Origin: Bacteroidales bacterium
GTDB taxonomy: Bacteria; Bacteroidota; Bacteroidia; Bacteroidales; UBA12077
Direction: 5' to 3'
DNA: 32,832 nucleotides
NCBI GenBank assembly: GCA_028282585.1
Contig: JANQHR010000063.1
Coordinates: 1-32,832 of the forward strand
The position numbers and the translations under genes were made by a program. A model generated the notes under the pieces. The model worked only from the letters and a program-made list of their open reading frames with translations, ran no database searches and was not told where the DNA came from. Each line of letters starts with the position of its first letter. The first letter of the stretch is position 1. This document shows positions 383 through 25,919 of the stretch, piece after piece.

Positions 383-1022
383 CATTAGAGGGCACTTAAA
401 ACCCGCTGATTATTAATTGTTTATTTTTTAGTTCTTTGACATTTTTGTAATCGTATTTTGTAAGCACTTCTCTTACAGGAGTTTTTTCGAGTAGGGGTAT
501 GCTAAGGATTTGTAGGATTTCGTAGATTGAGCGGTCAACTTTCAATTTGTTACCAACTATGGCAACAAGACAGTATGCGATGATAGCACAATACATTTGG
601 ATTTTTACAGCATTAATAGTTGTTCCCCAAAAGGATTTTATCTTCAGGTGCTGTTTCATCCATTTGAAAAACAGTTCTACTTCCCAACGCTTCTTATGCA
701 GGTAAACTATTTCGGTAGGTTTAAGCTGCATGTTGTTGGTAAGGAAAATTAGTTCCTTACCTGATTCACAATCATAGTATTTTATTCTCCGGAGCTTCTC
801 TGGATAATCCCTGCTTAGGTAGTAAGTTTCCAACTTGCCGATTTGATCATATTTCACCCCGGTTGCTTTGTCAACTAGGGTTGAATACATCCGCTTAAAC
901 CGCATGTTATCTTTTGCCCGTGTAACAAAGAAAGCCTGTTGCTTGTGAAGATGGTACAGTCTTTTAAAATCAATGTAAGCCCTGTCTATCACATAAAAGC
1001 TCCCGGGCTCATATGAGATCAG
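383..1022 (-). mobile_element. 5'-truncated IS4-family element (DDE transposase C-terminal half plus one terminal IR)
   Basis: ORF 396..992 carries DRAYIDF, FFVTRAK, LRRIKYYD, FLTNN and the YREK-like HKKRWEVELFFKWMKQHL motif. The frame continues upstream as LISYEPGSFYV to ~1022 and then loses similarity. Candidate IR CATTAGAGGGCACTTAA at 383-399 overlaps the stop. Confidence 0.85.
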
Positions 1023-1051
1023 AACAAGGGCATGTTTTGTTTTGCAATGTG

Positions 1052-1167
1052 CTTATATTCAGAAAAATAGAAATCTTTTTTCTTCTGTGGTACCTTTCTG
1101 GTAACCCTATAATTATTTGTTTAAAGAACGCTACAAATTATATTCAAATGTATCAAACTTTAGTGAA
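1052..1167. repeat. Direct repeat, copy 1 (~116 bp)
   Basis: CTTATATTCAGAAAAATAGAAATCTTTTTTCTTCTGTGGTACCTTTCTGGTAACCCTATAATTATT... aligns by eye at roughly 90% with 15448-15564. Confidence 0.95.
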
Positions 1168-1251
1168 ATTCTTTCATATAATAATTTCATTTTTTAAATC
1201 TAATTTTTGTTTTAGTGAAATGCTAATGTAGATAAAGGTGTACGTTTGATC

Positions 1252-3102
1252 CTATCCACTTAAAGGTTTACGTTGAATAATTATTTGAATAAATACTCCT
1301 ATAAATAATGAAATTGAAATATAAGCTAGTAGTATGGTATTAATAATATATAAGTCGAATTCTCTTCGAAATATCTTACCTTCATATTTATGCATTATCT
1401 TATCGCCGTTTTGTCTCTCAATCGACGATAAGTTGTTAAATAAAGTCAATTTATTTGACTTTGATAATTTATTTTTTTTAATGATCGAGATTATTGAGGA
1501 AGTATCAGGTTTACTGATGTTATCCAAATAGAAGAGCGTGTCTTGGAGCCCTAATTTTTTACCATTAGGATTGTATAATCTTGAAGAATCAGATTTAAGG
1601 ATAATGTTCTCAACCCATAACTCTTGTAATATATCATCTTGAAAGAATCTCTCTTTCAACGTGATTGACCCTGCTATTAGACTAATAGTAATAGAGTAAA
1701 ATGAAGCTAAGAACATAATGCCGAACGTCTTTAAAAAGGATCTGCCTATAGGAGAGAGTGGTCTTAATGTTCTTTCATTACTCAATATCATGAAGAAAGT
1801 TAATGGAAATAAAATATAGCATATAGTTTCAATGCTATCATTATTTGTTAAGCAATGCTCAAGAATGAATTTGGATTTAGAAACAAGCAACCATGATGAG
1901 AAGAGAATAACAGTCAGGCTAAATAAAATAAGCTGAAATGATCTATTCAATTTATAAATTCCTAAAATGCAAAAACTGAAAAAGAAGGTTAAAACTCCAA
2001 GACTAATAAAGAATAAAATAATTATAAGACTGATTTGTATAGTGTTTTGAAAATCAGTCCCGTAGAATGCAAAAACAAAAGATGCGATAAAACTTATTAT
2101 TAATAACCATGGCGGGAAACTTTTAAATTTTTCAAGGTTAAAAATCAAACTAAAAGAAGATACAATATTATTTCTTTGAGCTAACCAGAGTGAATAATTC
2201 GCCTTATCATTAGAGTCTACATCCGTTTTCTTATAAATTGAATAGAGCTCTTTTTCAATGTCTTGAAACCAATAGAAATTAACATTTCCATTTTTCTTAT
2301 TCTTTTTTCTATGTATAATATTCTCAGCGCCAGATTTCATCAATACTCTAGCCCATTTATCTTTAACCTTACTATTAACCTTTTTTATTTTATCATTATT
2401 AGAAACATATAAGTTATAATAGAAATCAAGCTTAGCTGATGTAGCTTCGAAATAAAAGTTTTGAAACAATTGGCTTTTTGCCCGGCTAAAATATGGGCTA
2501 GATTTAAATAATTCCGTATGGTTAAAATCGAATAAAAAATCTAAGAATAGCTCCCTTAGAAATAATTTTTCGTAATCATTCCTTATACCATTATTATCAT
2601 TTTTTCCTTTTTTGAAATGCACTAGGTACTGCCAAACTCTTCTTATTCGATATCCTAGTTTCTGCCAAAACTTTAAATTGGCATCTTCCTCATTATTAAT
2701 GAATCCTAATTGTTTCTTTATGTTATCATCATTATAGTACCAACTTTTGTTAGTGAAATTTACATCTTTACTAATTGAATATTTTTGTGCAAGAGGAAAT
2801 TCCGCGTTAACTATCCAGTCAAGAGTCGTATTTAGTTCATTATTTGTTTTATTCCCTTCATAATAAGGTAGCTCAAATAGAATGGTATCCAAAAAATCTA
2901 AGCCTATTGTTTTTTTAGAATCTTCTTTTTTTCTATTTAATTCTCCGGTAAAGTAAAAGCCTATTCTATTTTTATGAAAGATGACATAAACAGGATATGA
3001 AATAGAAGACTTCTTCTGATAAACCTTTTTATAATTATATACTAAATCTCCATTCTGAGAAGCCGAATTATTACACAGTTTAAAGAATTGCCCGTTACTC
3101 AT
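1252..3102 (-). CDS. Hypothetical membrane protein (616 aa): ~320-aa soluble N-terminus, then ~6 TM helices
   Basis: Long ORF starting 3 bp after the upstream gene's stop. Hydrophobic segments at PPWLLIISFIASFVFAF, ISLIIILFFISLGVLTFFFSFCILGI, LILFSLTVILFSSWLLV, ICYILFPLTFFMIL, FGIMFLASFYSITISLIAG and ILLAYISISLFIGVFIQIII. Confidence 0.85.
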   Translation of the reverse strand: MSNGQFFKLCNNSASQNGDLVYNYKKVYQKKSSISYPVYVIFHKNRIGFYFTGELNRKKEDSKKTIGLDFLDTILFELPYYEGNKTNNELNTTLDWIVNAEFPLAQKYSISKDVNFTNKSWYYNDDNIKKQLGFINNEEDANLKFWQKLGYRIRRVWQYLVHFKKGKNDNNGIRNDYEKLFLRELFLDFLFDFNHTELFKSSPYFSRAKSQLFQNFYFEATSAKLDFYYNLYVSNNDKIKKVNSKVKDKWARVLMKSGAENIIHRKKNKKNGNVNFYWFQDIEKELYSIYKKTDVDSNDKANYSLWLAQRNNIVSSFSLIFNLEKFKSFPPWLLIISFIASFVFAFYGTDFQNTIQISLIIILFFISLGVLTFFFSFCILGIYKLNRSFQLILFSLTVILFSSWLLVSKSKFILEHCLTNNDSIETICYILFPLTFFMILSNERTLRPLSPIGRSFLKTFGIMFLASFYSITISLIAGSITLKERFFQDDILQELWVENIILKSDSSRLYNPNGKKLGLQDTLFYLDNISKPDTSSIISIIKKNKLSKSNKLTLFNNLSSIERQNGDKIMHKYEGKIFRREFDLYIINTILLAYISISLFIGVFIQIIIQRKPLSG

Positions 3103-3105
3103 GGA

Positions 3106-5316
3106 TTAGTAATATTTAGCCAATGATTCAAGATAATTACCTACTATTTTGAAAGTTTCCTCAAGTTCAGTAACTCGTAACTCGCTATTAACAAGCTTAT
3201 ATAATTCTAAAGTTTGTCCTATATTATAACCAGTACCGTATGCCAGCTGAAACAAAAGTTGTCTTAAATGGTCATAAAAAATTACTTTTTCTGATTCAAG
3301 TTGAGAATTAATATGATCTATAACCGAACCAGCAAAAGCTGAATTACATTCATAATCTTTTGAAATGATTTCCCTTTGTCCAAATTTGTAAATATATGCA
3401 CCATATAAGCCTTTTGACCAGCTTCTAACATCAATTTCCTTATCATCCTTTTTGGGAATTAACTTATTCTGTATTAAAAATCTTATCAAAATGTCTTTTG
3501 TAATGATTACTTGAGAAATTTGAAGACGTAAAAATGAATAAAAAGCATAATTAAACAATTCTGGAGAGTTTACAGGATCACCTCCTCGAGAAAGATACCA
3601 ATGCTCACTATTATGACCTAATCCCTGTTCCCTTAATCGGTCTAGAAAGGCGGTTTGAAAAGACGAAATATTGATGATCCAGAATTTCCCCAATGGACCT
3701 TTATTCCTAGAAATTCCCTCGATTAGCTGTTTAAAATATTCTTTTTCAGTATAACTAGAAGACATTTCAATTGGCATATAAAATGCTAGTTCAGAGTAAT
3801 CTTTCTCATTATACCCCTCATCTTTAGCAAGAATCCTATGTAAAATATTAAGTAATTCATGCGAATATTCTCTTGCTCCCTTTCTTCTTAAATTTTCGCC
3901 TAACAAATAGTCTAATAAAATTATATCATAAGTTTTTTCAGATAATTTCTCTAGCGCTTTACATATAATATACTGTTTTTTACTTTTAATTGATGAATCA
4001 AGATCAGAAACTGAATCAATAGTTATATTTTCATTATCTATAATATCACTAATAATTACTTTTTTAGTAAGACCTTCTCCTTCTAAACCAGTAAGTTCGA
4101 CATCGGCAAAATCATCAATTAAGAGGCATTTCCATTTTAAATTAAGTATTTCTTCATTGTTACCTATAAGCTTTTTCGTTTCCTCCTGCATTTTCGTTTC
4201 TGAATGAAAGATAAAAGGAGTAATATGTGAACCGTGTGAATCAGATTCTTTTAGTTTTATATTAAATAACGCTTTGTTAACGGTACAATATTCACTGAAT
4301 ACACTAGATTTTAATAATTGTGCATTATGATTAGGAAGTGAGAATAATCCCTGTTCTATATAGGCAATTGGGTAGTATGCTGTTTTTATATTCGAGTCAA
4401 TAAATTGAATATTTCTTGCAATATTTAGTTTGCTCTTGAGCCAGTCCAATTCTTCAAAATAAGCTTTTATATCTTTCAAGGGAAAAGCTTCTGATTTGGT
4501 TTTTGAACTAATAGCTAATTCAAATAGATCGTCGACGCCCGCAAATAACACTTTCTTTTTATCAAATGTTTCTATCTTATTAAAAAATGAAAAAAATGTT
4601 TTCAAAAAATCCTTGTGAGACAAATCAAGTAATGTCACAAAGCAAATAATAAAATTATCTTCTAAGATTGGCTTGTAATATTTAAGATTTTCTTCTGTAA
4701 TAAAATTATTCCTTATCTTCTCAAAGCTTTCTGTTATGTAATAATTATAACTAGTTTCTAATATACTTTGGGTCTCAAAATCAATAGCAACATTAAGTTG
4801 AAAATCTCTTATTCCAGTATCAATATCATGGTCAGCTTGTGATTCCAGTAAATTTTTTTCTCTCTTGATTAATAGATTTTCAATTTCACCATCAGGAATC
4901 TTAATTTTATTTACTATCTCATCAATTTCATTATTTGCTATAGTCTGTTCCCCGTTTTTCACTTTCCTTATAAACTGATGTACAATACCATTTGTGTGAG
5001 AAAATGAAAAAAAATTAATATTATTATCAGCTTCAACACTCAAAAGTGCGTTATTCACTTTTTTCTCATCTTTAGCAAAATCAAAATCACTGGCATGCAA
5101 GAAGATATAATAAGTATGTTCATTGGAAAAACTACTCAATAATGAATTTATATATTCCTCTTTACTTTGATTGTCGGCTTTTACATTAAAGTACCTAATA
5201 GCTTGGTGACTGTCTAAGCAAGTATCATTTAAATGAGGATACTTTTGAATGAAATCTTCATCCCATGTACAGAATACGTAAAAAATGTTATTATTATTTT
5301 GTTCCATGGGCTGCAT
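3106..5316 (-). CDS. 736-aa protein with an internal response-regulator receiver-like domain and no recognisable DNA-binding output
   Basis: KCLLIDDF (acidic pair), YDIILLDYLLG (phosphoacceptor Asp) and WIINISSF (S/T position). The start overlaps the upstream stop; the true start may be the second Met (MEQ). Confidence 0.75.
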   Translation of the reverse strand: MQPMEQNNNNIFYVFCTWDEDFIQKYPHLNDTCLDSHQAIRYFNVKADNQSKEEYINSLLSSFSNEHTYYIFLHASDFDFAKDEKKVNNALLSVEADNNINFFSFSHTNGIVHQFIRKVKNGEQTIANNEIDEIVNKIKIPDGEIENLLIKREKNLLESQADHDIDTGIRDFQLNVAIDFETQSILETSYNYYITESFEKIRNNFITEENLKYYKPILEDNFIICFVTLLDLSHKDFLKTFFSFFNKIETFDKKKVLFAGVDDLFELAISSKTKSEAFPLKDIKAYFEELDWLKSKLNIARNIQFIDSNIKTAYYPIAYIEQGLFSLPNHNAQLLKSSVFSEYCTVNKALFNIKLKESDSHGSHITPFIFHSETKMQEETKKLIGNNEEILNLKWKCLLIDDFADVELTGLEGEGLTKKVIISDIIDNENITIDSVSDLDSSIKSKKQYIICKALEKLSEKTYDIILLDYLLGENLRRKGAREYSHELLNILHRILAKDEGYNEKDYSELAFYMPIEMSSSYTEKEYFKQLIEGISRNKGPLGKFWIINISSFQTAFLDRLREQGLGHNSEHWYLSRGGDPVNSPELFNYAFYSFLRLQISQVIITKDILIRFLIQNKLIPKKDDKEIDVRSWSKGLYGAYIYKFGQREIISKDYECNSAFAGSVIDHINSQLESEKVIFYDHLRQLLFQLAYGTGYNIGQTLELYKLVNSELRVTELEETFKIVGNYLESLAKYY

Positions 5317-8300
5317 ATAATTGTTCAGTTAAAGTATACTTGCAATCAAAAATTGCATTTTCAATAGATGAATATTGGATGAAAGGTAATAAATCCGGTA
5401 TCTCATTGGAGTCAGGTCGAGATCTCCCAGAATGAATGAAAATTTTTGTTTTCTTCCCAGGTCTTTTTTCTGTTATAGAATTAATCATTTTTTCATAAAT
5501 AGCTTTTGGACCTCCTTGTGTGTTCAATCCTTCCGATATTTTTTGGGTCAGAGAATGATGGACTGAAACAAAATGATAATCATTAAAAACTTTAAAATTT
5601 AGATCCGAAGCTGTTCTGAATATATTTCTAATTTTCGATTCAGTATCAAATAAAATCATCAAGTCGCCTAAAATATCAATTGAAAAAATATCGACTTCTT
5701 TATTTTTAAATAGAATATGTTGTTTAATATTCTCGTCATTTAATCGTTTGATATTTACATCTCTTTCTGAAATAAATTCAGCAAGTTCATTTTTGTTTTT
5801 ATGATTTAGATCTGTAAAAGTAAACGAAGGGTATTTTAGAAATTTCTTTTCATTAAAATATTTATTAAAGTCTTTTTCATTTTCCTTTAATTCGAGAAAT
5901 TTATCAAATTCTTGAACATATAGTGATTTTTCCTCGCCGGTAATACGACTCCAGATCCTTTCATCAAGGATAAGAACCTTGGTTTTCGTTGATTCAAACA
6001 TGTTCAGATACCAAGTTTCATTTAAAATTGAATTTCTAACTAATCTATCTGTTGAGTTATCACCTGTTATTGTTTCAAGGAATCTTGGTTTCTCATTTTT
6101 AATAAGTTCCTCTAATTCTTTATTGCTATATTCATTGAGATGTTTTAAAAATGAAATGCTGTTTTTTACTAGCGATAGTTCAATTTTTGGGTAGTAAGAC
6201 TCTAATTTCTTTTCTTCTTTTTTTGTGCTGGAGACACTTGTTCTGATTTTATCATAAATACTTATTGTTGGTCTTTCCCTTCCGAATCTTTTACCTATCC
6301 AGTAATCTATAATTTTGATGTATCGTTTATCTAACACATGATAAAACGCATTTAAGAGATTAATTTTTTTATCATTAGAGAAGTTATCTGATTCAAGTAT
6401 TTTCTCAAAAATTTCAATCTTTGGATATTCAAAAAATCTAGTAGGTGATAACTGCTTTATGTCAGCATCCATTTTCTGTTTGACTGACTTACTGTATATC
6501 ACATATCTATAACTCTTACATTTTTCGTTTTTATACTCATCAACTGTCAAAAAGTACCAACCTTCATAAATGCATTTATCTGATAATTCCTTGCTAAAAT
6601 ACTTATTCTTTAACTTTTGTGTAAGCAACACAGCAACTTTTCTTGATTTAAGCAAGTTGAACTGATAAGCAATATTCTTTTTTTTATTAAAAACTCTTAC
6701 AATATTTGAATTTCTGTTTTCCACTTCATTAAAATCGAGATTCCTCAACCATGCAGCTGAAATCTTAATTTCTTTTAAACCTTTATTTGATTCATTTAAT
6801 GAACCATCTTCATTAGTTAAAGGACTATCAATTCCTTTTTTGATCCGAAAAATATTCGCGTACTGATAAATCTTATTTTCTTCAATTTCCTGATCATCAA
6901 TATGTCTTCTTTCTTCATCAGTTAGTGCATATATTTTATCAGCTTCCTTGTCAATACATATAAGGCTTCCAACATCTTGGCAATTATCATATATCGTAAT
7001 TTCTAAAAGGCTAGGATCCAAGCTAGAATCTTTTAATTCAATTGTAAACTTTAACTTTGCCAAATCTTTTTTAGAATGTTTTGCAGAGTTTCTTATTATA
7101 TTTTCCATAATAGAGAACAATGCTTGACGACCTATTATTCCAGCTGGCAGATCTATATTTTTCTTTCTTAAATCGGATAAATCTTTATCTGCTTGAGTTC
7201 CAGGTTTCGTTTTGTCACCTTTAAATTCACCATAATTAATCTCTAATTGATTTCTACTTACTCCTTCAGCTCTAGCAATATTGTCAAGTAAAATATTTAC
7301 AACATCTCTACCTTGCAAATTGTGCCGCTTTACTCTTTTATCCCAGTTAAGTTCATCGTAAATTGAATCCTTAAAGTTTACAGGTGCAAAATAAGGTATA
7401 TGCCATGTTGAAATAGTTGCAATAAAATCTTGCCTTTCCTGCAGATATTGATAAAATCGATTGGTTCCCAATAGAAATGGTAATCCCTCTTGTTCAATTG
7501 TTTCTTGTACCTTATGAGCATCATAACCTTTTATTTGGTAATTTTTATTTACCAAATTTTCTAATAATTCGTTCTTAACAATATCTGTTACAGAATTAGT
7601 TTTCGTTTTTAAATTGGATAGGACATGACTACCCAAATTATGGCTCATGTTTCTTGCCATTATTGCACTTATAGCTGACTTTGTAGCATGATATTTGGCT
7701 TTTTTTGTCTGATCTAAAACTAGTGCGTATTGAAAGGTTTGGTAAATTGAAATAACATTATTTTGTACAAAAGTTTGATAATTTTTTCGCTCAAAATATG
7801 TTGATTCCGTTTTGAAAGGAACCAGCATACCTCCGACCCACCTTTTAGTTATTTTGTCTTCTTCTATAACATTTGTTATTGCTGGAAAATAGATAAATTC
7901 TTTATAATCATTGAAAGGTACGATTGTTTTGAAAAATTCTAAGTAAGTATAAAAAGCTTTATTAATATCTGAAAATTCAATTTTTCCAGAAGTGAGGCTT
8001 TGCTTTTCATTTAGAAGATCATTTATCAGTACACATTTATCAATGTTTTGGTTTTCTGATTTAGCTTCAGAATAAACTTTTTCAATAAAATCTTCAAAGT
8101 TATCCTTGGGTTCATTAATTTCATTTGATTCAAATTGTATATGAAACTCATTCTCAGAAATACCCGTTTTGTTTTTTGTTAGTATTAAATATGGTAAATT
8201 ATCCATATATCGTTCTGGGTAATTGCTAGATAAAGCTTCCAAAATTTTATTTGAATCAAAAATCTTATTAACGATTTTGGGATTTTTGTAAAGTTCAGTA

Positions 8301-8647
8301 AGCCTTTTTGCATGTTTTATTAGATATTCATTATTATCATTATTTGGAGTTAGATAAAAGGCTTTAAACTTTTTCTCAGCTTCATATTCCGATGGTAACC
8401 AGTAATCTAGTATTACAAAATCATTTTCATTATTCCTCATACTGAATAATGATTTTATTTGGAGAACTAATTGATTAAATAATGGTTTAGAGCTCAGATC
8501 TATAATACTTGCGATACATTCTTTCTGGATAATTTCATCAATTGACCTAATAAATGAGTATGGAGATACTATTTCAGTATGTATGTCTTGAACCCACTTA
8601 TAGTTTTTGTTTAGTTCTCTATTTTTATCACTATTAGCTGTAAACAT
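5294..8647 (-). CDS. 1117-aa soluble divergent histidine kinase/GHKL ATPase with a C-terminal degenerate receiver-like domain
   Basis: H-box-like AIMARNMSHNLGSHVL; N-box FSIMENIIRNSAKH; G1-like ITIYDNC; G2-like SNKGLKE. C-terminal KVLILDERIW ... FVSVHHSL ... IFIHSGR. No TM segments seen. Confidence 0.75.
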   Translation of the reverse strand: MFTANSDKNRELNKNYKWVQDIHTEIVSPYSFIRSIDEIIQKECIASIIDLSSKPLFNQLVLQIKSLFSMRNNENDFVILDYWLPSEYEAEKKFKAFYLTPNNDNNEYLIKHAKRLTELYKNPKIVNKIFDSNKILEALSSNYPERYMDNLPYLILTKNKTGISENEFHIQFESNEINEPKDNFEDFIEKVYSEAKSENQNIDKCVLINDLLNEKQSLTSGKIEFSDINKAFYTYLEFFKTIVPFNDYKEFIYFPAITNVIEEDKITKRWVGGMLVPFKTESTYFERKNYQTFVQNNVISIYQTFQYALVLDQTKKAKYHATKSAISAIMARNMSHNLGSHVLSNLKTKTNSVTDIVKNELLENLVNKNYQIKGYDAHKVQETIEQEGLPFLLGTNRFYQYLQERQDFIATISTWHIPYFAPVNFKDSIYDELNWDKRVKRHNLQGRDVVNILLDNIARAEGVSRNQLEINYGEFKGDKTKPGTQADKDLSDLRKKNIDLPAGIIGRQALFSIMENIIRNSAKHSKKDLAKLKFTIELKDSSLDPSLLEITIYDNCQDVGSLICIDKEADKIYALTDEERRHIDDQEIEENKIYQYANIFRIKKGIDSPLTNEDGSLNESNKGLKEIKISAAWLRNLDFNEVENRNSNIVRVFNKKKNIAYQFNLLKSRKVAVLLTQKLKNKYFSKELSDKCIYEGWYFLTVDEYKNEKCKSYRYVIYSKSVKQKMDADIKQLSPTRFFEYPKIEIFEKILESDNFSNDKKINLLNAFYHVLDKRYIKIIDYWIGKRFGRERPTISIYDKIRTSVSSTKKEEKKLESYYPKIELSLVKNSISFLKHLNEYSNKELEELIKNEKPRFLETITGDNSTDRLVRNSILNETWYLNMFESTKTKVLILDERIWSRITGEEKSLYVQEFDKFLELKENEKDFNKYFNEKKFLKYPSFTFTDLNHKNKNELAEFISERDVNIKRLNDENIKQHILFKNKEVDIFSIDILGDLMILFDTESKIRNIFRTASDLNFKVFNDYHFVSVHHSLTQKISEGLNTQGGPKAIYEKMINSITEKRPGKKTKIFIHSGRSRPDSNEIPDLLPFIQYSSIENAIFDCKYTLTEQLYAAHGTK

Positions 8648-10131
8648 TATAAAAAGCCTCCACTCTTTTTTTTCTTAGATTCCAAATAACCATTGATTTC
8701 AGAAATTTCATGGATTATTTCTGTATAAGAAATATTGGTAAAATATTCTATCCAAATTTTATTTGCAAGGTTAAGATCAATCTTATCTTTATTGCTAAAA
8801 TTTTTATTTGCCAGTTTCCACCCTTCCTTATATTCTAATAGATTCGCTTTTTTAAGCTCAGTTTCTATATTGTTATAGAATTTAGATTTTATATTTCCTA
8901 GAAAAAGATCCCATGCAGGGGAATTAGGAAGAGGGTACAACTTGCTGACCTCTATACTAATTGCATTTCTAAAACCTGAAAGCCACTGAATAAAACTAAT
9001 TGTTTTATTTAAATCATCCTTAGTTTCACCTAAAGCACCTAGAATAAAAGAAGCATGTAATTGAAAATTATAATCTGCAATTTTTTGAATTGCTTGTTTG
9101 TTAATATCAGTTGTATAGTAACCTTTTCTCAGTTGCTTAAGTGTATATTCACTTCCTGTTTCCAAACCAACAATTATTCTTTTAACATGCAGCTTTTCAA
9201 AATCATCTAAAATATCATTATCCTTCACAATATTATCTGCTCGAGAATATACAATTAGTTCAATATCGGAGTTCTTATACCAATCAGGTATGGACTTTAC
9301 TAATTCTTTTCTATATTTCTTCAAGCCCCCGAAGTTATCACAAACTTCAAAAAACAGATTCGCTTGTAATTCTTGATTATAATGCTTTATTAATTCCCAT
9401 AAATTTTCAGGTGTTCCATACTCAGGTTTCAGTGAATAAATGCTGCAATACAAACAATGGTTTTTAAAATTTGTACAACCTTGCGCATTATTTACTGTAA
9501 GTGGAAAAATATTTTTACCATGATATTCTCCAAAATCATTATTATAGTTTTCACTATATCTCTTTAATTGATCTCCCCCTAATAAATTAAAATCTGGAAG
9601 TATTTTATTAAAAGAAGTTTTTTGAATTTGCTTTGACTGCTTAACAATACTTCCTTCTCTATAGAATAAATTACTTGTCTCGCTGAAATCGTTTGACTCT
9701 ATTGCAGCAACTAAATTACAAAAATCAAAACCTCCATTTTCTCCTTGAATAACATAATCAACATACTCTCTTTTATTTAGAATTAATTCAGGAAAAAAAG
9801 ACACATGATCATTTCCAAGAACTATATATTTTACACCTACTTCTTTTGAATATTTTGAAATTTCAAGGGCATTCTCATATGTAGAAGTTAATGTGCTAAT
9901 TCCCAAAATTTCCGGTTTGAATTCCTTTATCTGATCTTTTACGAGGTTGAAATTTTGAATTTCAGCATCAATAATCTTAACATTTATATAAGGAAATGTT
10001 GCCTTTAATTCAGATCCAATTTTCACCAATCCTAATGGAGGATAACATGAATAATTAACTGTTGGATTATATTTATCCCCAATCTCTTTTATTGAAGAAT
10101 TTAATAACAATACCTTTTTAATAAACCCCAT
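8647..10131 (-). CDS. Cobalamin-binding-domain radical SAM protein (class B methylase-like)
   Basis: N-terminal B12-binding motifs PPLGL, KPEILGIS, IVLGNDHVS and DYVIQGE. Cluster motif GCTNFKNHCLYC. Barrel motifs IIVGLETGS and SFILGALGET. Confidence 0.92.
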   Translation of the reverse strand: MGFIKKVLLLNSSIKEIGDKYNPTVNYSCYPPLGLVKIGSELKATFPYINVKIIDAEIQNFNLVKDQIKEFKPEILGISTLTSTYENALEISKYSKEVGVKYIVLGNDHVSFFPELILNKREYVDYVIQGENGGFDFCNLVAAIESNDFSETSNLFYREGSIVKQSKQIQKTSFNKILPDFNLLGGDQLKRYSENYNNDFGEYHGKNIFPLTVNNAQGCTNFKNHCLYCSIYSLKPEYGTPENLWELIKHYNQELQANLFFEVCDNFGGLKKYRKELVKSIPDWYKNSDIELIVYSRADNIVKDNDILDDFEKLHVKRIIVGLETGSEYTLKQLRKGYYTTDINKQAIQKIADYNFQLHASFILGALGETKDDLNKTISFIQWLSGFRNAISIEVSKLYPLPNSPAWDLFLGNIKSKFYNNIETELKKANLLEYKEGWKLANKNFSNKDKIDLNLANKIWIEYFTNISYTEIIHEISEINGYLESKKKKSGGFL

Positions 10132-11288
10132 TATAATTTTTGAATAGTATCTTTTTCTACAACAAATAATATCTCTCGCTTTAAATTTTTGTACCTCCAG
10201 ATACTTATTGGCTTATTTACATCCCCATTTTCATCGAAAGTAATAATTCCACTAGTTCCTTTATAATTGTTTGTTTTATTTAGCCTTTCAATAAAATCAT
10301 CTTGCCCATTACTATTCCCGTATGCATTCAACAAAATATTCGTAGCATCATATATTTCACATGCAAAAATTCCAGGATAATTACCATAAGATTTGTTGAA
10401 CTCCTTCATGAATTCCATTCGCACATCACCTATATAACCTTCAGGAAGGGACGTAGAGGAATAATACATATCGTTAATAGCTGTTCCTGCAAGTTCTAGA
10501 ACTCTTTCATCTTCAGCACTTTGATAAGAAAGCAATTGAACATCTTTATTTGCTTCACGTATTTGCTTGGCTATAAGACCAATATCTTGTGAAACACCAG
10601 ATATATATAGAGCATCAGGATTATTTTGTAATGCTTTTTGAATAATGTTTTTGAAATCGATAATATTTTCTTGAAACAATACCTTATCAATTACTTTATG
10701 ATCCAAATCATTATAATATTTTTCAAAAGAGTTGGCATATGATAAAGTACCTGCAGCTTGATTTGCAATTATAGCAATTCTTAAATTGTTAAATCTACTT
10801 TTAACAAATTTTGAAAAAGCAATAGTCTCGATGTTATCTGCGTTAATTGTTCTAAAAACATATTCTCCAGCATTTGAAATATCTACACTTGTTGATGATG
10901 GACTTATAATCGGTACCTTCCCTCTGTTTGCCAATGGACTAATTGACAATACTTCTGGACTGGTAATGGGACCGAGTATTCCAATAACTTTATCTATTTC
11001 AATTAATTTTTTACAAATATTTACAGCTTTTGACGATTGACCTTGACTATCTTCAAAAACTACTATAATTTTTTTTCCATTAAGACCGCCTTGATTGTTT
11101 AATTGCTCTACAGCTAATTCAACAGCTTTTCTTGTATCTACACCATAACTAGCTAAATTACCCGTTAAAGGCAAAATTGCTCCAATCTTAACTGTTCTCT
11201 CTGACTCATTATTTTTTGAACTATTTCTGCAATTTTGAAACATTAGAATTGCGCAGGAAATTGTTACTATTATAATTAATTTTTTCAT
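10131..11288 (-). CDS. Branched-chain-amino-acid-type (LivJ/LivK, PBP type 1) ABC substrate-binding lipoprotein
   Basis: Signal peptide ending FQN-C20; VKIGAILPLTG, GGLNGKKI, EDSQ, ILGPITS, YVFRT, YDATNIL and GIITFDENGD. Confidence 0.93.
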   Translation of the reverse strand: MKKLIIIVTISCAILMFQNCRNSSKNNESERTVKIGAILPLTGNLASYGVDTRKAVELAVEQLNNQGGLNGKKIIVVFEDSQGQSSKAVNICKKLIEIDKVIGILGPITSPEVLSISPLANRGKVPIISPSSTSVDISNAGEYVFRTINADNIETIAFSKFVKSRFNNLRIAIIANQAAGTLSYANSFEKYYNDLDHKVIDKVLFQENIIDFKNIIQKALQNNPDALYISGVSQDIGLIAKQIREANKDVQLLSYQSAEDERVLELAGTAINDMYYSSTSLPEGYIGDVRMEFMKEFNKSYGNYPGIFACEIYDATNILLNAYGNSNGQDDFIERLNKTNNYKGTSGIITFDENGDVNKPISIWRYKNLKREILFVVEKDTIQKL

Positions 11289-11360
11289 ACTATGTTTGCT
11301 TTACATTATGATGATATTAACTCAGTATTATTAAATTTTGTTAAAATTCTTTCAACTTAT

Positions 11361-12068
11361 TTAGAAAAAAAGATTACTGACTTCTCCTATTGATAAAGAA
11401 TTATTCGACTCAAAGTTCTCTTCAATTTCACCAGATTTAATTAGCACTATTCTCTCAGAAAACTCAATTGCTCTAGTAACATTTTGTTCTATTAGTATTA
11501 TGCCTAACTTTCTCTCTTGTTTTAGTTTAATTAGGATTTCATACGTTTCACTCATTAAGGCTGGCGATAGTCCTGCGCTTGGCTCATCCAAAATAAGAAA
11601 TTTAGGGTTGCGGATCAATACCATTGCTAACGCCAATTGATGCCTTAATCCTCCACTTAAATATCCTGCTTCTTTTTTTAATTCCTTCTTATGTAAAAAA
11701 GTGAAATATTTTGACAATTTTTCAACTTGATTTTCCAGATCTTTTCGTTTTAGTTCATTTCCTGCCATTATCAAATTTTCATAAGTGCTTAGATGAGGAA
11801 ATACCTCACCTCCTTGCATAAAATAGCCTATCCCTGATTTTATAATTTCAGATGTATTTTTTCTTGACATGTCAGTACCGTTAAATATTACTTTCCCAGA
11901 AAAGTAAGGAAGCATGCCAAGAATGACTTTAGCGATAGTACTTTTACCAGCTCCATTTTGACCAATAACAGAAACTGACTCACCAGGTAATACAGTCAGG
12001 TTGATATTTCTAATTATATCTTGATCCTTTAGGTAACCACCTGTTATATTTTGTAATTCGAGTTTCAT
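11361..12068 (-). CDS. livF: LivF-like ABC ATPase
   Basis: Walker A GQNGAGKST, signature LSGG, Walker B LILDEPSAGLSP, and IEQN switch; 235 aa. Confidence 0.9.
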   Translation of the reverse strand: MKLELQNITGGYLKDQDIIRNINLTVLPGESVSVIGQNGAGKSTIAKVILGMLPYFSGKVIFNGTDMSRKNTSEIIKSGIGYFMQGGEVFPHLSTYENLIMAGNELKRKDLENQVEKLSKYFTFLHKKELKKEAGYLSGGLRHQLALAMVLIRNPKFLILDEPSAGLSPALMSETYEILIKLKQERKLGIILIEQNVTRAIEFSERIVLIKSGEIEENFESNNSLSIGEVSNLFF

Positions 12069-12880
12069 ACTCCTAAATAATTCTTTTGTACGAATTCATT
12101 TCCTAATACTTTTGAAGGTGTACCCTGCATATTAATTTTGCCATTATCAAGGAAAAAACAATTGTGAGCTGTTTTTCGTACAAAATTCATATTATGCTCT
12201 ATTAAGAATACGGTCATTCCATTTTCCAAAACCATCTGTTTAATTATTTCTGAGATAAAATCATTTAATGCAGGATTTATACCTGCAGTTGGTTCATCAA
12301 GTAATACAAGTTTATAATCTGACATGAAAAGTCTTATTAAGCCTATAAGTCTTTTCTGACCAAAAGATAAGGATGATGCTTTATCGTTTAGTTTTGATAA
12401 AAGTTCATGAGATTTTCCAAATAAATGAGCTATTGTTTCAGTAGCTTTTTGGGTCAGTACTTTTTCTGACTCTTTTACTCTCTTTACATTAAATATTGCT
12501 TCAAATGGGTTTCCTTTTAAAACATTTTTATCAGCAATGATTAGATTCTCTAATACAGTAAGAGTTGGAAATATATGATTATCTTGGAATAGTCTTCCAA
12601 TTCCTAAATGTTCGCGTTTATATGGAGGTATTTCCGAAAGGTTTGTTGTTTTTGAATTGTGAAAATAAATATTGCCACTATCCTCTTTTAAAAAGCCTGA
12701 AAGAATATTAAATAAGGTGGTCTTACCGGTAGCATTCCCTCCAATAAGTGCGGATATTGTATTTTCAGGAATTGAAATATTCAGATTTGACAAAAGATTA
12801 TAAGTTTCATCATCTTTTCCATACTTCCCTTTGGAAAAGCTCTTGTATAATTCTTTTATTTCTAAAATATTTCTTGCCAT
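12065..12880 (-). CDS. livG: LivG-like ABC ATPase
   Basis: Walker A GGNATGKTT, GIGRLFQ, LSFGQKR, LLDEPTAG, IEHNM and C-terminal NYLG. ATGA overlap with livF. Confidence 0.9.
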   Translation of the reverse strand: MARNILEIKELYKSFSKGKYGKDDETYNLLSNLNISIPENTISALIGGNATGKTTLFNILSGFLKEDSGNIYFHNSKTTNLSEIPPYKREHLGIGRLFQDNHIFPTLTVLENLIIADKNVLKGNPFEAIFNVKRVKESEKVLTQKATETIAHLFGKSHELLSKLNDKASSLSFGQKRLIGLIRLFMSDYKLVLLDEPTAGINPALNDFISEIIKQMVLENGMTVFLIEHNMNFVRKTAHNCFFLDNGKINMQGTPSKVLGNEFVQKNYLGV

Positions 12881-12881
12881 C

Positions 12882-13751
12882 TTAAAATTTATAAACTCCA
12901 GCTAATCCCTGGCTTCTATATCTCATGATTATTACCAATGTTAAACCATAAATTATCATTCGCATATTAGCAGCAATACTATCCGGTAACCCAACAAACC
13001 TTAGCAATTCCGGGAGTGCAACTACAAAAATAGCTCCAATAATTGGTCCTTTTATATTTCCAGTACCACCAATAAGGACGGCTGAGATGATAAAAATTGA
13101 TTCATCTAAATTGTAACTTGTAGGATCAATATAGCTAATATAACTCGCATAAATAAAACCACTAATTGCAGCAAAAGAACTTGATATCACAAACGATTGA
13201 ATTTTTAATTTTGTGATATTCTTACCTAATGCAATCATGGATATGCTGTCATCTCTTAAACCTTTTAAATCCCTACCAAAGGGAGATTTAATTAATCTGT
13301 GAAAGAAAAATATTGTAATGGCTGAAAAAGCTGTGCTAACCATTAGAAAGGATTCTATTCCTTTTATTTCTATATAACCGAATAATTTTGGGGAAGGAAT
13401 CCCTGGTATTCCGTATGGACCCATAGTGACTGCAATCCAATTGTTTAAAATCGTGAAGACTATAATTTGAATGCCTAGAGTTGCCAGAATAAAATAATCA
13501 CCTTCCATTTTTAATGAGATATATCCAACGATTATTGCAAAAAGGAGAGTTATAACAATGGCTAATATTACACTTGGGAAAAAAGAAAGTCCAAGTGTTT
13601 TCAATGCTAGTGCTGTAACATATGCTCCTATGCCATAGAATGCTGCTTGCCCAATTGATAATAAATTTGATAATCCCACCATAAGATTTGTACTTACAGT
13701 AAGTATCAGATATATGTTTATCATTATTAATAGATGCAATACATAATTCAT
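12882..13751 (-). CDS. livM: LivM-like ABC permease
   Basis: SIGQAAFYGIGAY, GDYFILATL, GPYGI, SPFGR, IGGTG and LPELLR; multiple TM helices. Confidence 0.9.
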   Translation of the reverse strand: MNYVLHLLIMINIYLILTVSTNLMVGLSNLLSIGQAAFYGIGAYVTALALKTLGLSFFPSVILAIVITLLFAIIVGYISLKMEGDYFILATLGIQIIVFTILNNWIAVTMGPYGIPGIPSPKLFGYIEIKGIESFLMVSTAFSAITIFFFHRLIKSPFGRDLKGLRDDSISMIALGKNITKLKIQSFVISSSFAAISGFIYASYISYIDPTSYNLDESIFIISAVLIGGTGNIKGPIIGAIFVVALPELLRFVGLPDSIAANMRMIIYGLTLVIIMRYRSQGLAGVYKF

Positions 13752-13752
13752 A

Positions 13753-14622
13753 CTATACCAATCTTTGTTTTTCTCCGAACAAACCTTGTGGTCTGAATAT
13801 TAGAAATATTATAAGAATACTGAATGTCATTAAATCTTGCCAGTTAGCGGAGAACTTCCAGACAACTAATGATTGTAATAATCCTATAAAAATACCTCCA
13901 AATAGGGGGGCATGAAACTTCCCAATTCCGCCAATTATTAGAGCGACAACTGCGTTAAGAAACATCGGCATTCCTATATAAGGATCCATTCCTACATCTA
14001 AAGAAATAAGTATACCTCCAATTGCAGCAAATGCTCCACTTAAAGCATATAAACTAAGTCTGAATTTTGGCACATTTAAAGCAAAAACATTACAAAGTGT
14101 AACATTGTCTCTCATTGCCCTTGTTTTAATTCCAAACTTGCTGTATTTGAGAAATACCATAAATCCAGAAATGGCAAGAGTGCTAATTACTAGTTGAGTA
14201 AATTGCTTATATGTGATAATGATGTTACCTAATGAAATCGTGTTTGAGATTGAAGAACTCAAAATCTTAGTATCATTACCGTAGATTAATGCGATAACAT
14301 TTATTCCGACTATCATTAAACCTATTGAGCTAATCATTATGACATTGAGTGAACTTTTTTTCTTGATAAGAGGTCTGTAAATGATTAATTCAATCAGAAC
14401 ACTGATTAATACTATACAAACAATAGCAGCAACTGAACTTAGAACTAAAGGATATCCAGCTTGCGAATAAAAGGAATAAACCAGGTAAGGAGCAATCATA
14501 TATAAAATAGCAAATGCTATATGGAATATCCGCGTAGTATTATAAACAATCGCAAATCCTAAAGCTACCATAGCATAAATTGCTCCGTTTATAAATCCAT
14601 TTATGAGAAACTGAGTTAGCAT
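13753..14622 (-). CDS. livH: LivH-like ABC permease
   Basis: QFLING..GAIYAMVALGFAIVY, SKFG..RA, IIGGIG and RPQGLFG. Confidence 0.9.
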   Translation of the reverse strand: MLTQFLINGFINGAIYAMVALGFAIVYNTTRIFHIAFAILYMIAPYLVYSFYSQAGYPLVLSSVAAIVCIVLISVLIELIIYRPLIKKKSSLNVIMISSIGLMIVGINVIALIYGNDTKILSSSISNTISLGNIIITYKQFTQLVISTLAISGFMVFLKYSKFGIKTRAMRDNVTLCNVFALNVPKFRLSLYALSGAFAAIGGILISLDVGMDPYIGMPMFLNAVVALIIGGIGKFHAPLFGGIFIGLLQSLVVWKFSANWQDLMTFSILIIFLIFRPQGLFGEKQRLV

Positions 14623-14638
14623 TGCTAGTTTTATTTTA

Positions 14639-14917
14639 TTAATAGTGTTTCAAAAATTCCTTAATTCCTTCTTTTAAATATTTTAAATCTCCTAGCTCTA
14701 CTAAAAGGAACGATTTTATAAATTCTATTTCAATTTCTTTCTCAGGTTTATCAAGTGATTTAGCCAGTAAAGGAATCATCTCTGGAGTTGGTTTTCTCTC
14801 ATTTCTCTCAATTTTACTAAGTATAGATGTATCTATGTCAAGCATGGCAGCAACTTTTCTAAGTGGCATTTTTTCTTCTTCCCTAATTGATCTAATATAT
14901 TCTCCAAACGTTTTCAT
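14639..14917 (-). CDS. XRE-family (HTH_3) transcriptional regulator heading the operon
   Basis: TFGEYIRSIREEEKMPLRKVAAMLDIDTSILSKIERNERKP; 92 aa. Confidence 0.92.
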   Translation of the reverse strand: MKTFGEYIRSIREEEKMPLRKVAAMLDIDTSILSKIERNERKPTPEMIPLLAKSLDKPEKEIEIEFIKSFLLVELGDLKYLKEGIKEFLKHY

Positions 14918-14946
14918 CTTGACGATTTTGTTTTGATGATTACTTC

Positions 14947-14954
14947 CAAATGTA
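14947..14954 (-). promoter_or_regulatory. Bacteroidota -7 promoter element for the minus-strand operon
   Basis: Minus-strand TACATTTG matches TAnnTTTG about 30 bp upstream of the XRE start codon. Confidence 0.6.
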
Positions 14955-15120
14955 CAGAAAATCTAATAGCTTAATAACATATTGTGATTATTTTCTTCAA
15001 CATATTTGTATGAATGACAGGCGTTAGGATATTTCATATATACATTGAACGAGTGCTACATGATTATCAAGTTTTATTCTGGACTAATTAAGGTTAACTC
15101 AAAATATCTATTTTTGTGGT

Positions 15121-15447
15121 ATGGCTAAGACTTATGATAATAGTAAAATTAGACTAACCAATGGGGAAGATATTGTCTTGAAAGATTTTTTCCATAAAAA
15201 CTATCCGGTATTTAGTTCTTTTGCCTCTAAATATATTTCCAATAAAGATCTTTGTGAAGATTTTGCTCAAGATATTTTAATAAAATTCTGGGAAAGCAAG
15301 CAAACCTTTCTTAGCATACACTGTAAAAGCTTATTTTAATAAATCAATCCTAAATTCATGTCTCGACCACATTAAGCATGAAAAGGTAAAAGACAAATAC
15401 ATTAACTATAAAATCTTGAATAAAGATATATCATATTGTAAATCGTA
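15121..15447 (+). pseudogene. ECF sigma-70 factor (Bacteroides expansion family), frameshifted and truncated
   Basis: Region 2 motifs FASKY..EDFAQDILIKFWE. After a frameshift near 15320 it continues KAYFNKSILNSCLDHIKHEKV, then runs into repeat copy 2. Region 4 is absent. Confidence 0.85.
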
Positions 15448-15564
15448 CTTATATTCAGAAAAGTAGAAATCTTTTTTCTTCTGTGGTATCTTTCTGGTAA
15501 CCCTATAATTATTGTTGTTTTAGAACGCAATAAATTATATCCAAATGTATTAAATTTTATTGAA
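15448..15564. repeat. Direct repeat, copy 2 (~117 bp)
   Basis: Same orientation as 1052-1167 and roughly 90% identical by manual alignment. Confidence 0.95.
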
Positions 15565-16395
15565 TGATTTAGGAGGGAAATACTTTTTTACTGATTATCA
15601 TTTTTATGATTGATACATATTTATAGCAGGGTACAACAAGATATCTTGAAATGATATCATTAAAATTTAATTAAATATATTCAGACGCTATTGTCTTTTA
15701 ATTTTATTATTCATAACTTGTGTATTGAAAATTAATTACTAATGTCCTCATACATAATTATAAGATGTTAACGATCCGCCTCTATACGTATGGAACCAGT
15801 TTTAAGGTTATTCACCAGTTCTTACCTCCAGATAGCCTAAATAATAAATTCCCATATCTGAATAGAACCTTAGAAACCCTCAAGATTCATAGATGAAATG
15901 TTAATATGATTTACTTGGATTTTAGCAATATAGAGATCTCTGGTTCAATATTTTAAAGTGCAAATAACCCAGTTTTAGGTTATACAAACGTTAGCAAGCA
16001 TTAGAAAAAAATAATAAAATTATGGAAGAAAATAAATATCAGAAGATAAACAAGCAAATACCACTGGATATGGTTATAATTTAAATAATCAACAAAGATT
16101 TGAACTAATTTTAAAAGGCTTTCTATTAGAAAACTATAATAATCAAGGGTTCAATTTTTTTAAAACTAAACTATTTATAATACAATGATGCGATTTGCGC
16201 CAAACATTACCATAGTGAAAGTTGGAGAATTGGGTATTTAGGTCAACCTGAAATTCTAAAACACTATTAAGGTCAAGAATATACCTGTAGTAGTGCCTAT
16301 GGTTATCTTTTAAATCAAGGTGGTCTTTTTTTAAGCATGTAAAGTTAGGTAGTAACAAATTCTTAAACAATTACACATCTTTTAATGTAAAACAA

Positions 16396-16929
16396 ATGAA
16401 GAAATATTTCATATTATTAATGATAGTTCTAATTAGCCTAAACGCTTATTCTCAAACAGTCAATTTAGATGGAATAAGTTTTGGTACAGGAGTTTTAGTA
16501 GAATCAGATGAAAATTTTCTTGATGGTGGTTACTTTGAACTTGGATATTCAAAAATAAAAATGACCAAATCAGGATTATTTTACAGTAATGGAACTGAAT
16601 TTTTAGGAAGAGTACGTTTCCAGAACTCTAAATCTGGCAATTCAATTGGAATTATAACTGGTTTCAAATATCACTTTCTGGGTTCTTTGCTTTCTTTGGG
16701 ATCAGATGTTGAGTATGTTAAATCAATCTCATCAAAAGGAGGAGATTTAAACATTAGCCCTAACCTCCAATTGAATATGTTCACACCAGAATTGTCTGTC
16801 GTTTGTAATTATTCAATAAACTTAACTTCGAACTCAACTAGTGAACAAGGTAGGTTTTTATTAGGCTTACGTTATGTCTATGCTTTCGATAAAGGCAACA
16901 GATTTTTAGATTATAAGAACAAAAAATAA
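16396..16929 (+). CDS. Secreted/outer-membrane beta-barrel-like hypothetical protein
   Basis: Sec signal MKKYFILLMIVLISLNAYS-Q, alternating amphipathic strands, and RFLLGLRYVYAF near the C-terminus. Confidence 0.75.
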   Translation: MKKYFILLMIVLISLNAYSQTVNLDGISFGTGVLVESDENFLDGGYFELGYSKIKMTKSGLFYSNGTEFLGRVRFQNSKSGNSIGIITGFKYHFLGSLLSLGSDVEYVKSISSKGGDLNISPNLQLNMFTPELSVVCNYSINLTSNSTSEQGRFLLGLRYVYAFDKGNRFLDYKNKK

Positions 16930-17127
16930 CATTTTATAAAGAATATAATGTATAGGTTTCCTACGGGACGGCAATACACAAATAAAGACCGTTGATCTTT
17001 TATTCCACAAGCGTGGAACTTTTTCCATTTGTGTAACTCCCAGTAAAAAGATAGAAATTGCCTTTAGCTTGTATTAAAATAACTTTAGAAAATAAGAACA
17101 ATCATATATAAACCAAAATAAGTTATC

Positions 17128-17835
17128 ATGGAAAGACGCAAATTTATTGAAATAGCTGGAGGTATTTATGAAAACAATAAATACTATACACAATGGTCTG
17201 GAGCAGAAAAGGCAAAACATTTTTGGAACTTTTTTGATTCAAGTGGAGATGAGTATATTCATTCTGTTTATGCTGGAGTTACAGTTGATTTATTGCGTCG
17301 TAAAAAGATGTATAGTATAGAACATATTGTACCTAAGTCATTTATAAAAAAGTATCTAGCTTTAAAAGGTAACAAGGAGACAATAATAAAAGGAGCTACA
17401 ACAAATCCATTGAATTTTGCGGCAGCTCATAGGAAAATAAATTCTGCAAGGTTGAATTTTCCATTTGATGTGGAGGGAGACAAAATTATTAGAAGTTATA
17501 ATATAAAACTGGAAGGTATCTATTCTGATTATGGATTAGATAGTGAAAAAGAATGGGTTATACCAATAAGGACACAAGGGGATATTGCACGCTCTATATT
17601 ATATATGTGTTTGTTATATAATATTGAAGAATTATATGGCGAGCACTTGAATGTATACCGAAATTGGGCAAAATTGGATCCGCCAAATATATGGGAATTG
17701 AAGTATAATGATTGGATATATAAAAAGTTTAAAATTCGAAATCCTCTTGTAGCTGACTACAGCCACCCTAAAGAGTCATTTGAGCTATTAAATGATGAAG
17801 AGTTAATGAGTTCATTACTATTAAAAGATAACTGA
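17128..17835 (+). CDS. Endonuclease I family (His-Me finger; EndA/Bsn-like) nuclease
   Basis: SIEHIVPKS, INSARLNFPF, QGDIARSILYM, W..LDPP..WE and RNPLV. Confidence 0.9.
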   Translation: MERRKFIEIAGGIYENNKYYTQWSGAEKAKHFWNFFDSSGDEYIHSVYAGVTVDLLRRKKMYSIEHIVPKSFIKKYLALKGNKETIIKGATTNPLNFAAAHRKINSARLNFPFDVEGDKIIRSYNIKLEGIYSDYGLDSEKEWVIPIRTQGDIARSILYMCLLYNIEELYGEHLNVYRNWAKLDPPNIWELKYNDWIYKKFKIRNPLVADYSHPKESFELLNDEELMSSLLLKDN

Positions 17836-17967
17836 AAAATTCTTTGGATGAATGACCAATTAAAAAACTTGGTTTTAAACTCTTTGATTACGGGATATGT
17901 CAATTATACAGTAGCGAAATAATCAAATGTTTGTATTATACAACCCTTAGCACACAATAGCAAAAAA

Positions 17968-19476: not shown

Positions 19477-19646
19477 TATTAAAACAAGAATACATTATAG
19501 ATTGTAATGATTGTGGTTTCAAAAGAAAAGGCGCCGATTTGGAGATGTTGGCTATCGAAAGAGATAAGCACAAAGCGAAAAATCCAACACACGAAATAGG
19601 ATGGTATTTAAGAGAAAGAACTCTCACTAAGATCAAAGGTAAATAA
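19473..19646 (+). CDS. Unannotated 57-aa protein with a CX2C-X18-HX6H putative zinc finger
   Basis: MILKQEYIIDCNDCGFKRKGADLEMLAIERDKHKAKNPTHEIGWYLRERTLTKIKGK*. ATGA overlap with the upstream stop; below the ORF-track size cutoff. Confidence 0.65.
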   Translation: MILKQEYIIDCNDCGFKRKGADLEMLAIERDKHKAKNPTHEIGWYLRERTLTKIKGK

Positions 19647-19898
19647 ACATTTATTTACACGGTGTGTAAGATCGTAATGAAGAATTTGCAATAAATTTAT
19701 GTGGAAATGAATTTAAAATTGTTGTAAATAGCGCAACATCTTTCGCATCTAATCAAACTTTTTGACATTATTACTCTACCAATATTCACTTGATATTAAT
19801 AAAAATACCAACTGTATTTTATGGGATTTAACTACTTTTAATATGAAAAGCGGAATTTTTGTTACGGGAGATAAATCCTCCCGTTAAATCCTTATCGT

Positions 19899-25177: not shown

Positions 25178-25216
25178 TAAATTTAAGGATAATGATTAAA
25201 AAAAGAAGTTTTGAAT

Positions 25217-25224
25217 TACCTTTG
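25217..25224 (+). promoter_or_regulatory. Bacteroidota -7 promoter element
   Basis: TACCTTTG = TAnnTTTG, upstream of the structured leader. Confidence 0.55.
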
Positions 25225-25301
25225 TGAAATACATATGAAAACGACTACTCCTGATACGGGAGTATTGAAATATTAAAGACATGAGCGTTTGCTCTATTCT
25301 T

Positions 25302-25469: not shown

Positions 25470-25486
25470 GTAAAAACAATTCGAAA

Positions 25487-25768: not shown

Positions 25769-25828
25769 CATTTAACTTGTTTGTTTCCTTTTTTAGGTTT
25801 TTCCTCTGATATTTTTAATTCAAAAAAA

Positions 25829-25882: not shown

Positions 25883-25919
25883 GCAAAACTCAAATTGTAA
25901 CAAATTAAATGATTTAGTT

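Follow-up and report, generated by a model that had tools for sequence, protein, structure and literature searches.

The 32,832-nt contig C164 of a Bacteroidales bacterium, which we analysed as a whole (hereafter the window, whose numbering is used for all positions) and which belongs to a metagenome-assembled draft genome of 4,888,182 bases in 173 contigs, carries two direct copies of a ~120-bp repeat, here called R, on either side of a tightly packed operon. From our analysis, the segment between the copies together with one R (1168-15444 plus one R; 14.4 kb) is probably a discrete insertion/deletion unit that ends in R and is gained or lost by homology-driven reciprocal recombination across R. 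One strain carries the unit and a relative lacks precisely this unit, both ends of the missing stretch lying within R; the structure itself is of an ordinary and well-known kind, a direct-repeat-bounded genomic islet. A preliminary description of this DNA had regarded the repeats as att-like or homologous-recombination boundaries that mark a discrete unit, a view supported by a related strain in which the same outer flanks enclose only one R. The placement of the crossover in R, the homology-driven mechanism and the direction of the event (gain or loss) are what we infer from the comparisons given below.

The absence of the unit was observed among contigs from three runs of one study, namely X1 (a coral metagenome, the one public run found to contain the region and the probable source of the assembly), X2 and X3, which were compared with positions 1-17500 of the window. 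No RNA run was listed for this region. Contig 14 of X2 (621 nt, depth 5.9) runs from the transposase fragment of the left flank through one R into the right flank. Its left side aligns to 979-1117 (139 nt, with 10 other letters and 6 gap letters) and its right side to 15523-15804 (282 nt, with 31 other letters and 3 gaps); 1117 is joined to 15523, with 8 letters at the place of the R spacer, and 14,405 nt are skipped. This contig is the empty-site form, with one R and the same outer flanks, in a relative that is ~90% identical, and it is the kind of single-copy site that the preliminary description had anticipated for an acquired segment. Depth in X2 was below 4 in 22 of 23 bins over 1169-14600. 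A contig of X3 covering 15654-15795 shares five of the X2 variants, which is indicative that the same relative is present in X3. In both X2 and X3 the resemblance to the window ends near 15800, and the cargo of the relative to the right of ~15800 must therefore be different or more diverged. The two-copy form was recovered independently from X1, where a 26,307-nt contig produced by another assembler corresponds to 633-17500 with zero differences and even depth; this exact reproduction argues that the two-copy form is not a binning artefact. Closely related coral-associated strains therefore differ by the 14.4-kb module.

Sequence identity between the relative and the window also changes along the locus. 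The X2 contigs over 98-936 (records 8, 12 and 13) have 1, 0 and 3 other letters, while the empty-site contig is 7% different over 979-1117 and 11% different over 15523-15804. In our own reading, the jump from ~99-100% identity (98-936) to 89-93% around R would be a mosaic typical of homologous exchange, if the X2 contigs share one genome.

In a BLAST search of the whole draft genome, the copies of R (1049-1167 vs 15445-15564) aligned over 121 columns with 89% identity (E 3e-38), on the same strand, in direct orientation and with a spacing of 14,396 nt. The preliminary description had reported a direct repeat of ~116 bp and ~90% identity bracketing the operon, in good agreement with this alignment. 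A repeat search returned a single repeat family, pairing 1022-1117 with 15418-15513 at the same spacing of 14,396, and comparison of 1-9000 with 14001-32832 by blastn and tblastx found nothing in common besides R. The two copies differ at ~13 positions, which are unevenly distributed. By our own count on the alignment, the core of R (1052-1117, 66 nt) has 2 mismatches (1067 A/G and 1093 C/T; 97% identity) and the remaining ~50 nt have ~10-11 differences including indels; 2/66 vs 11/53 differences give a Fisher p of 0.0026. The core contains the motif GGTAYC-N5-GGTAACC, and the core motif GGTAYCTTTCTGGTAACC, which contains two palindrome-like half-sites, occurs exactly twice in the window (0.01 expected by chance), confined to the two R copies.

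At its edges the repeat does not appear to stop abruptly. It had been suggested in the preliminary description that each copy cuts a gene at a sharp left edge; this suggestion is weakened, since the ungapped similarity seems to run 30 nt further left, into transposase-derived sequence. With the register fixed by the core, these 30 nt show 16/30 matches, 10 transitions and 4 transversions, and against all other window positions, ungapped, the probability of at least 16 matches is 0.0017 and that of at least 26 matches plus transitions is 6e-5, for a length of 30 nt that was picked after the result of the repeat search was known. The first 40 nt to the right of R gave p = 0.03. Gapped alignment of the flanks beyond R was not significant (p = 0.08 and 0.8, and p = 0.45 for the left 30 nt). 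Taken together, the similarity looks as if it fades outward from the R core with no stop at an element end and resembles an old homologous segment. Should the leftward similarity be genuine, the template from which the right copy descends already contained the transposase|R junction, and the left edge of R is not an element terminus that struck two genes independently.

Within the draft genome, R is confined to these two places. BLAST found only 2 copies in the draft genome and no other match longer than 34 nt. No full-length R was found in 60 relatives, three of which had partial matches of 26-70 nt (E 7e-5 to 6e-4). Exact-word scans returned 0 matches in the genome collection (24-mer), the metagenome collection (25-mer and 22-mer) and the viral collection, scans from which diverged copies could escape, and BLAST against the plasmid and phage collections likewise returned 0 matches. 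Since there are two genomic copies only and none of full length in the relatives or collections, R does not behave as a transposing repeat family, and judging from these searches it is private to this locus and not a dispersed element within the collections searched. A high-copy dispersed repeat, which in the preliminary description would have spoken against an acquired unit, is thereby set aside. No third or partial copy was found at the right edge of the low-GC block that extends beyond the right copy (~19.5-19.9 kb). The minus strand of both copies reads RVTRK(V/I)PQKKKDFYFSEYK, as had been pointed out earlier, and this reading is correct; the accompanying hint of a duplicated gene fragment is not borne out. 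The peptide lies in a short frame that opens directly behind a TAA stop and lacks a start codon, and apart from the two copies the genome contains no relative of it (the best further match covers 11 residues, E 0.008).

Based on these observations, we propose that the 14.4-kb module, which lies between two diverged R copies in the cargo region of an integrative and conjugative element (ICE), would be inserted or removed along with one R by reciprocal recombination across R. This could occur as a Campbell-type insertion of circular DNA carrying a diverged R or, in reverse, as a loop-out deletion between the R copies, and in both cases the driver would be the host homologous recombination machinery, with no recombinase supplied by the unit itself. 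We rank homology-driven recombination above an att-like site because neither the unit nor the contig has a recombinase, R was found nowhere else, the similarity fades outward and the identity around R appears mosaic. The preliminary description had noted that no integrase was visible, and in fact no match to a tyrosine (PF00589) or serine (PF00239) recombinase was found on this contig; the recombinase matches of the genome (7 tyrosine and 1 serine) are all on other contigs.

Several points weigh against homology-driven exchange. The empty site rests on one short, low-depth contig, known by its alignment to the window and from a relative ~90% identical, and this contig ceases to resemble the window after 15804. 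The divergence within R, 3% in the core vs ~20% in the rest, could mean a functional recombination site and not plain homology, and the near-perfect block of 66 nt, with longest exact runs of ~25 nt, offers little length for RecA-dependent recombination. The leftward extension reaches significance by the ungapped in-register test only, the gapped tests giving p = 0.45 and 0.08-0.09. Among the X1 contigs there is no circular or repeat-to-repeat joint, although contigs cannot show rare forms. Finally, the origin of the two-copy state is left unexplained by this mechanism.

Among the other explanations, the one to be taken most seriously, though we consider it unlikely, is that R is a site-specific recombination site (att- or res-like) whose recombinase is supplied in trans by the conjugative element or the chromosome, the operon being an integrase-less, cis-mobilizable cassette. 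The retention of 97% identity in the 66-nt core while the surroundings diverge, the paired half-sites of the twice-occurring core motif, the existence of a single-copy empty site, and a unit without its own recombinase in a genome with seven tyrosine recombinases elsewhere would all fit such a site, and integrase-less elements that keep attL/attR beside ICEs, the cis-mobilizable elements (CIMEs), are an established class (PMC5704250). However, there is no third genomic copy of R (e.g., at an ICE end), no recombinase gene within 32.8 kb, no target gene or tRNA (no tRNA or tmRNA genes were found in the window), no stable fold of R and no other element carrying R in any collection searched, and a whole-site duplication at 89% identity is unlike the outcome of attP x attB recombination. 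A more specific version appears less probable still, namely that the R core (GGTAYC-N5-GGTAACC) is the site of a trans-acting recombinase that shuttles large integrase-less operon cassettes into and out of the cargo region of Bacteroidota conjugative elements; if true, this would be a whole-operon cassette-exchange system with no sequence relation to integron attC, dif-type or CTnDOT att sites. Only if R is a dedicated recombination site would a new mechanism be revealed.

An explanation that requires no exchange at R is improbable, viz., that R is a conserved cis-acting element (promoter, terminator or small RNA) present as two old paralogous copies and that the absence of the operon is an unrelated deletion or regional replacement. 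The conserved core between decayed flanks is compatible with this, and the 7-11% divergence of the relative's allele around R leaves room for the whole region having been swapped. Against it, the skipped stretch in the relative starts and ends inside R, something that an unrelated deletion would not produce; moreover, Rfam gave no match in the whole window, single-strand folds of both R copies on both strands were no better than shuffles (z -0.51, +0.59, +0.40 and -0.32), no terminator-like sites were found around either copy, and sigma-70 promoter-like sites around R were at or below shuffle expectation in scans that do not model Bacteroidota promoters. There is still less to be said for R as the terminal piece of a small transposable element (the end of an insertion sequence (IS) or of a miniature inverted-repeat transposable element) that hit the transposase and sigma genes independently, the copies being unrelated to the arrival of the operon; we regard this as very improbable. 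A broken gene does lie directly to the left of each copy, and the missing gene halves were not found in the genome, but there are two copies only and none elsewhere, no terminal inverted repeats were found in R, no transposase is associated with it, the similarity appears to continue past the supposed end, and one R together with the DNA between the copies is exactly what sets the empty site apart from the window. That R might form the left end of the truncated IS was likewise rejected, as the inverted repeats of the related IS4 elements read GTTCTTTGA[A/C]AT.. (window 431-450) and R does not match them. That the two-copy structure is an assembly artefact is hardly credible: the draft does come from a metagenome and is broken into 173 contigs, but the ~13 differences and a longest shared exact run of ~25 nt would allow assemblers with longer words to separate the copies, and the independent 26-kb contig of X1 reproduces 633-17500 at even depth without difference.

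Homology-driven exchange across R can be compared with several known systems. Homologous recombination between short direct repeats, by Campbell-type integration or loop-out deletion, is a general mechanism, and the present locus resembles it in that the segment is flanked by two direct copies, a form with one copy and unchanged outer flanks exists and no dedicated recombinase is required; it differs in that the homology is short and imperfect, with an unusually well kept core. The res sites of the Tn3 family act on direct copies and delete the DNA between them, the internal resolution site of Tn4430 being ~116 bp. R is similar in size (~115-120 bp) and is present as direct copies; however, there is no resolvase or TnpI-like gene on the contig and no transposon context. 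As in integrons, where attC sites of 60-140 bp occur, direct copies of a site mark the ends of a mobile unit. Unlike attC, R does not have a hairpin-forming imperfect palindrome, and the lack of a significant fold argues against an attC-like hairpin; the contig also has no integron integrase, and instead of a promoterless single gene the unit comprises a self-regulated operon of 14.4 kb.

The nearest named class is that of CIMEs, which, along with tandem accretion at ICE att sites, have been described for the ICESt1/ICESt3 family (PMC5704250). The likeness is in a module without integration or transfer genes that is bounded by direct repeats and associated with an ICE, forms with and without the module coexisting. 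In contrast, R is no more than a candidate att site and is not situated where a target gene or tRNA ends, a third copy of R at an ICE end is absent (in an incomplete draft of 173 contigs), as is a nearby cognate integrase, the R copies are only 89% identical, and the module is inside the cargo region and not in tandem with the ICE. Membership in the class thus fails on the features tested (target gene, third site and nearby cognate integrase).

The exact limits of a horizontally moving 14.4-kb module are fixed by this result. Its gene set is unusual, combining an importer, a B12-radical SAM enzyme and a histidine-kinase-like protein of a large family without a Pfam domain, and the strains with and without the module are a natural pair for asking what the operon does. 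The locus also adds one more example of cargo swapping inside Bacteroidota conjugative elements. The features of the window are listed in Table 1.

Table 1. Coordinates of the repeat, the unit and the flanking features in the 32,832-nt window.
Feature	Position	Strand	Remarks
IS4-family transposase, C-terminal half	396..1049	-	NCBIfam IS4 profile positions 174-330 of 332
Possible diverged leftward extension of R	1022..1051, paired with 15418-15447	+	Transposase coding sequence at left copy
R, left copy	1049..1167	+	Core 1052-1117 near-identical to right copy
Variable spacer of R	1118-1125		8-9 nt, unalignable between copies
Second block of R	1126-1167		~80% identity to right copy
Segment between R copies	1168..15444		With one R copy, the 14.4-kb unit absent from the X2 empty-site contig
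Ten-gene tight operon	1252..14917	-	Gene predictions with Pfam/NCBIfam scans
616-aa membrane protein	1252-3102	-	
736-aa protein	3106-5316	-	
1117-aa histidine-kinase-like protein	5294-8647	-	
B12-binding radical SAM enzyme	8647-10131	-	
Periplasmic binding protein (Peripla_BP_6)	10131-11288	-	
Two LivH/M-type (BPD_transp_2) permeases and two ABC ATPases	within 1252..14917	-	
XRE-type helix-turn-helix (HTH) protein	14639-14917	-	
Probable sigma-70 region-2 gene fragment (extracytoplasmic function, ECF, type)	15121..15440 (or 15121-15466)	+	Inside unit, divergent from operon
R, right copy	15445..15564	+	Orientation as left copy
Low-GC right flank: 177-aa protein, endonuclease-I-like protein, 502-aa protein	15565..19900	+	
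Conjugative-element backbone genes	24320..32788	+	
RteC	24320-25177	+	E 4.6e-66
HTH_17	25848-26213	+	
HipA/HTH and Mrr-like genes	between backbone genes		
DUF4134 and DUF4133 proteins	31877-32499	+	DUF4134 E 2.6e-33
TraG-family conjugative transposon ATPase, start (N-terminal part)	32354-32788	+	

The operon had been described as comprising ten genes, and ten minus-strand genes indeed lie between the R copies; no integrase or transfer genes were found among them by Pfam and NCBIfam scans. The 1117-, 736- and 616-aa proteins had no match in Pfam, NCBIfam, PADLOC or PDB sequence searches. The 1117-aa protein is a member of a large family without a Pfam domain (1,851 cluster representatives at E <= 1e-3, 372 at E <= 1e-30); 10 of 12 homologues scanned had no Pfam domain and the other 2 had an added N-terminal methyltransferase domain. 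The predicted fold of its residues 300-720 (pLDDT, the predicted local distance difference test, 82; pTM, the predicted template modelling score, 0.82) is similar to the dimerization and histidine phosphotransfer (DHp) domain plus catalytic core of the sensor histidine kinases HK853, HprS and CpxA (Foldseek E from 4e-6; 66 chains at E <= 0.001). Invariant motifs in the family alignment include S-H-N-x-G-S-H and E-N-x-x-R-N-x-A-K-H, and an Atlas lead agrees with the likeness (score 0.86). The protein thus appears histidine-kinase-like, going by its modelled structure. No close relative of it was found in the genome collection. The arrangement of the genes for the 1117-, 736- and 616-aa proteins recurs in a genome from a different family of the same order (L020, G334:C64, ~9028-11455) with 27-34% identity, and this recurring gene order indicates that the three genes are a conserved module. 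The 616-aa protein had one other relative in a search of 5.8 billion proteins (P0002, 46% identity) and no relatives with genomic context in 36 genomes of the genus. In the 736-aa protein, a receiver-like stretch (..LLIDDF.. / ..DIILLDYLLG..) can be noticed by eye, with no Pfam match in support.

The other gene inside the unit was earlier taken for an ECF sigma gene broken at ~15440. A fragment of such a gene is probable. Its identification is weak, as the Sigma70_r2 score of 20.7 bits is below the Pfam threshold (cut-off 24), and the frame is shifted near 15315. The fragment lacks region 4; the region 4 profile (PF08281) had 56 matches in the genome, the sole one on this contig being at chance level and inside an AraC gene. 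The sigma-like fragment is probably a decaying pseudogene carried in the unit.

On the left, the preliminary description had an IS4 transposase broken at ~1022. The gene is indeed a truncated IS4 fragment, but it extends beyond that position, to ~1034-1052. Some 175-190 residues are missing from its N-terminus; the complete homologues of relatives have 390-411 aa and align only as far as window position 1034 or 1052, and the N-terminal half was not found anywhere in the draft genome. A related IS4 copy in X1, ~88% identical to 633-1033, is carried on a 2,962-nt contig (depth 13.8); it is without 133 nt (781-913) and leaves the window at 1033, the end of the window's transposase fragment. Positions 1-98, at the left contig end, are a short word-repetitive sequence (GGTGTCCG..TTTC.. 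units), which in X1 is on a contig at ~104x vs ~17x for the locus, i.e., a high-copy repeat that ended the assembly.

GC content is 27-33% over 1001-20000, 36% to the left and 33-43% to the right, and the low-GC block (27-30% GC) runs ~4.4 kb past the right R copy and ends just before an AraC-family gene. As the empty-site contig shares only the first ~240 nt of the right flank (15565-15804), the stretch 15565-19900 may be a second, separate cargo module. The DNA of 15300-17900 had no match in 300 genomes of the order, and the 502-aa protein had distant homologues only (27-33% identity). Further to the right, the RteC, HTH_17, DUF4134/DUF4133 and TraG-family genes identify the window, from their sequence matches, as the cargo region of a Bacteroidota conjugative element of the CTnDOT type. 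A DUF3875 match was also found in this region, and the integrase and ends of the conjugative element are outside the contig. The last 97 nt of the window (32735-32831), where the TraG-family gene begins, match positions 1-97 of contig C121 exactly in reverse orientation, and C121 carries a tyrosine recombinase; this overlap is an assembly branch point and suggests that the sample contains two related conjugative elements. Another direct repeat, with 44 nt and 84% identity (25823-25866 and 31394-31437) is located just upstream of the HTH_17 gene and of an open reading frame at 31408, and may act as a common regulatory leader within the conjugative element.

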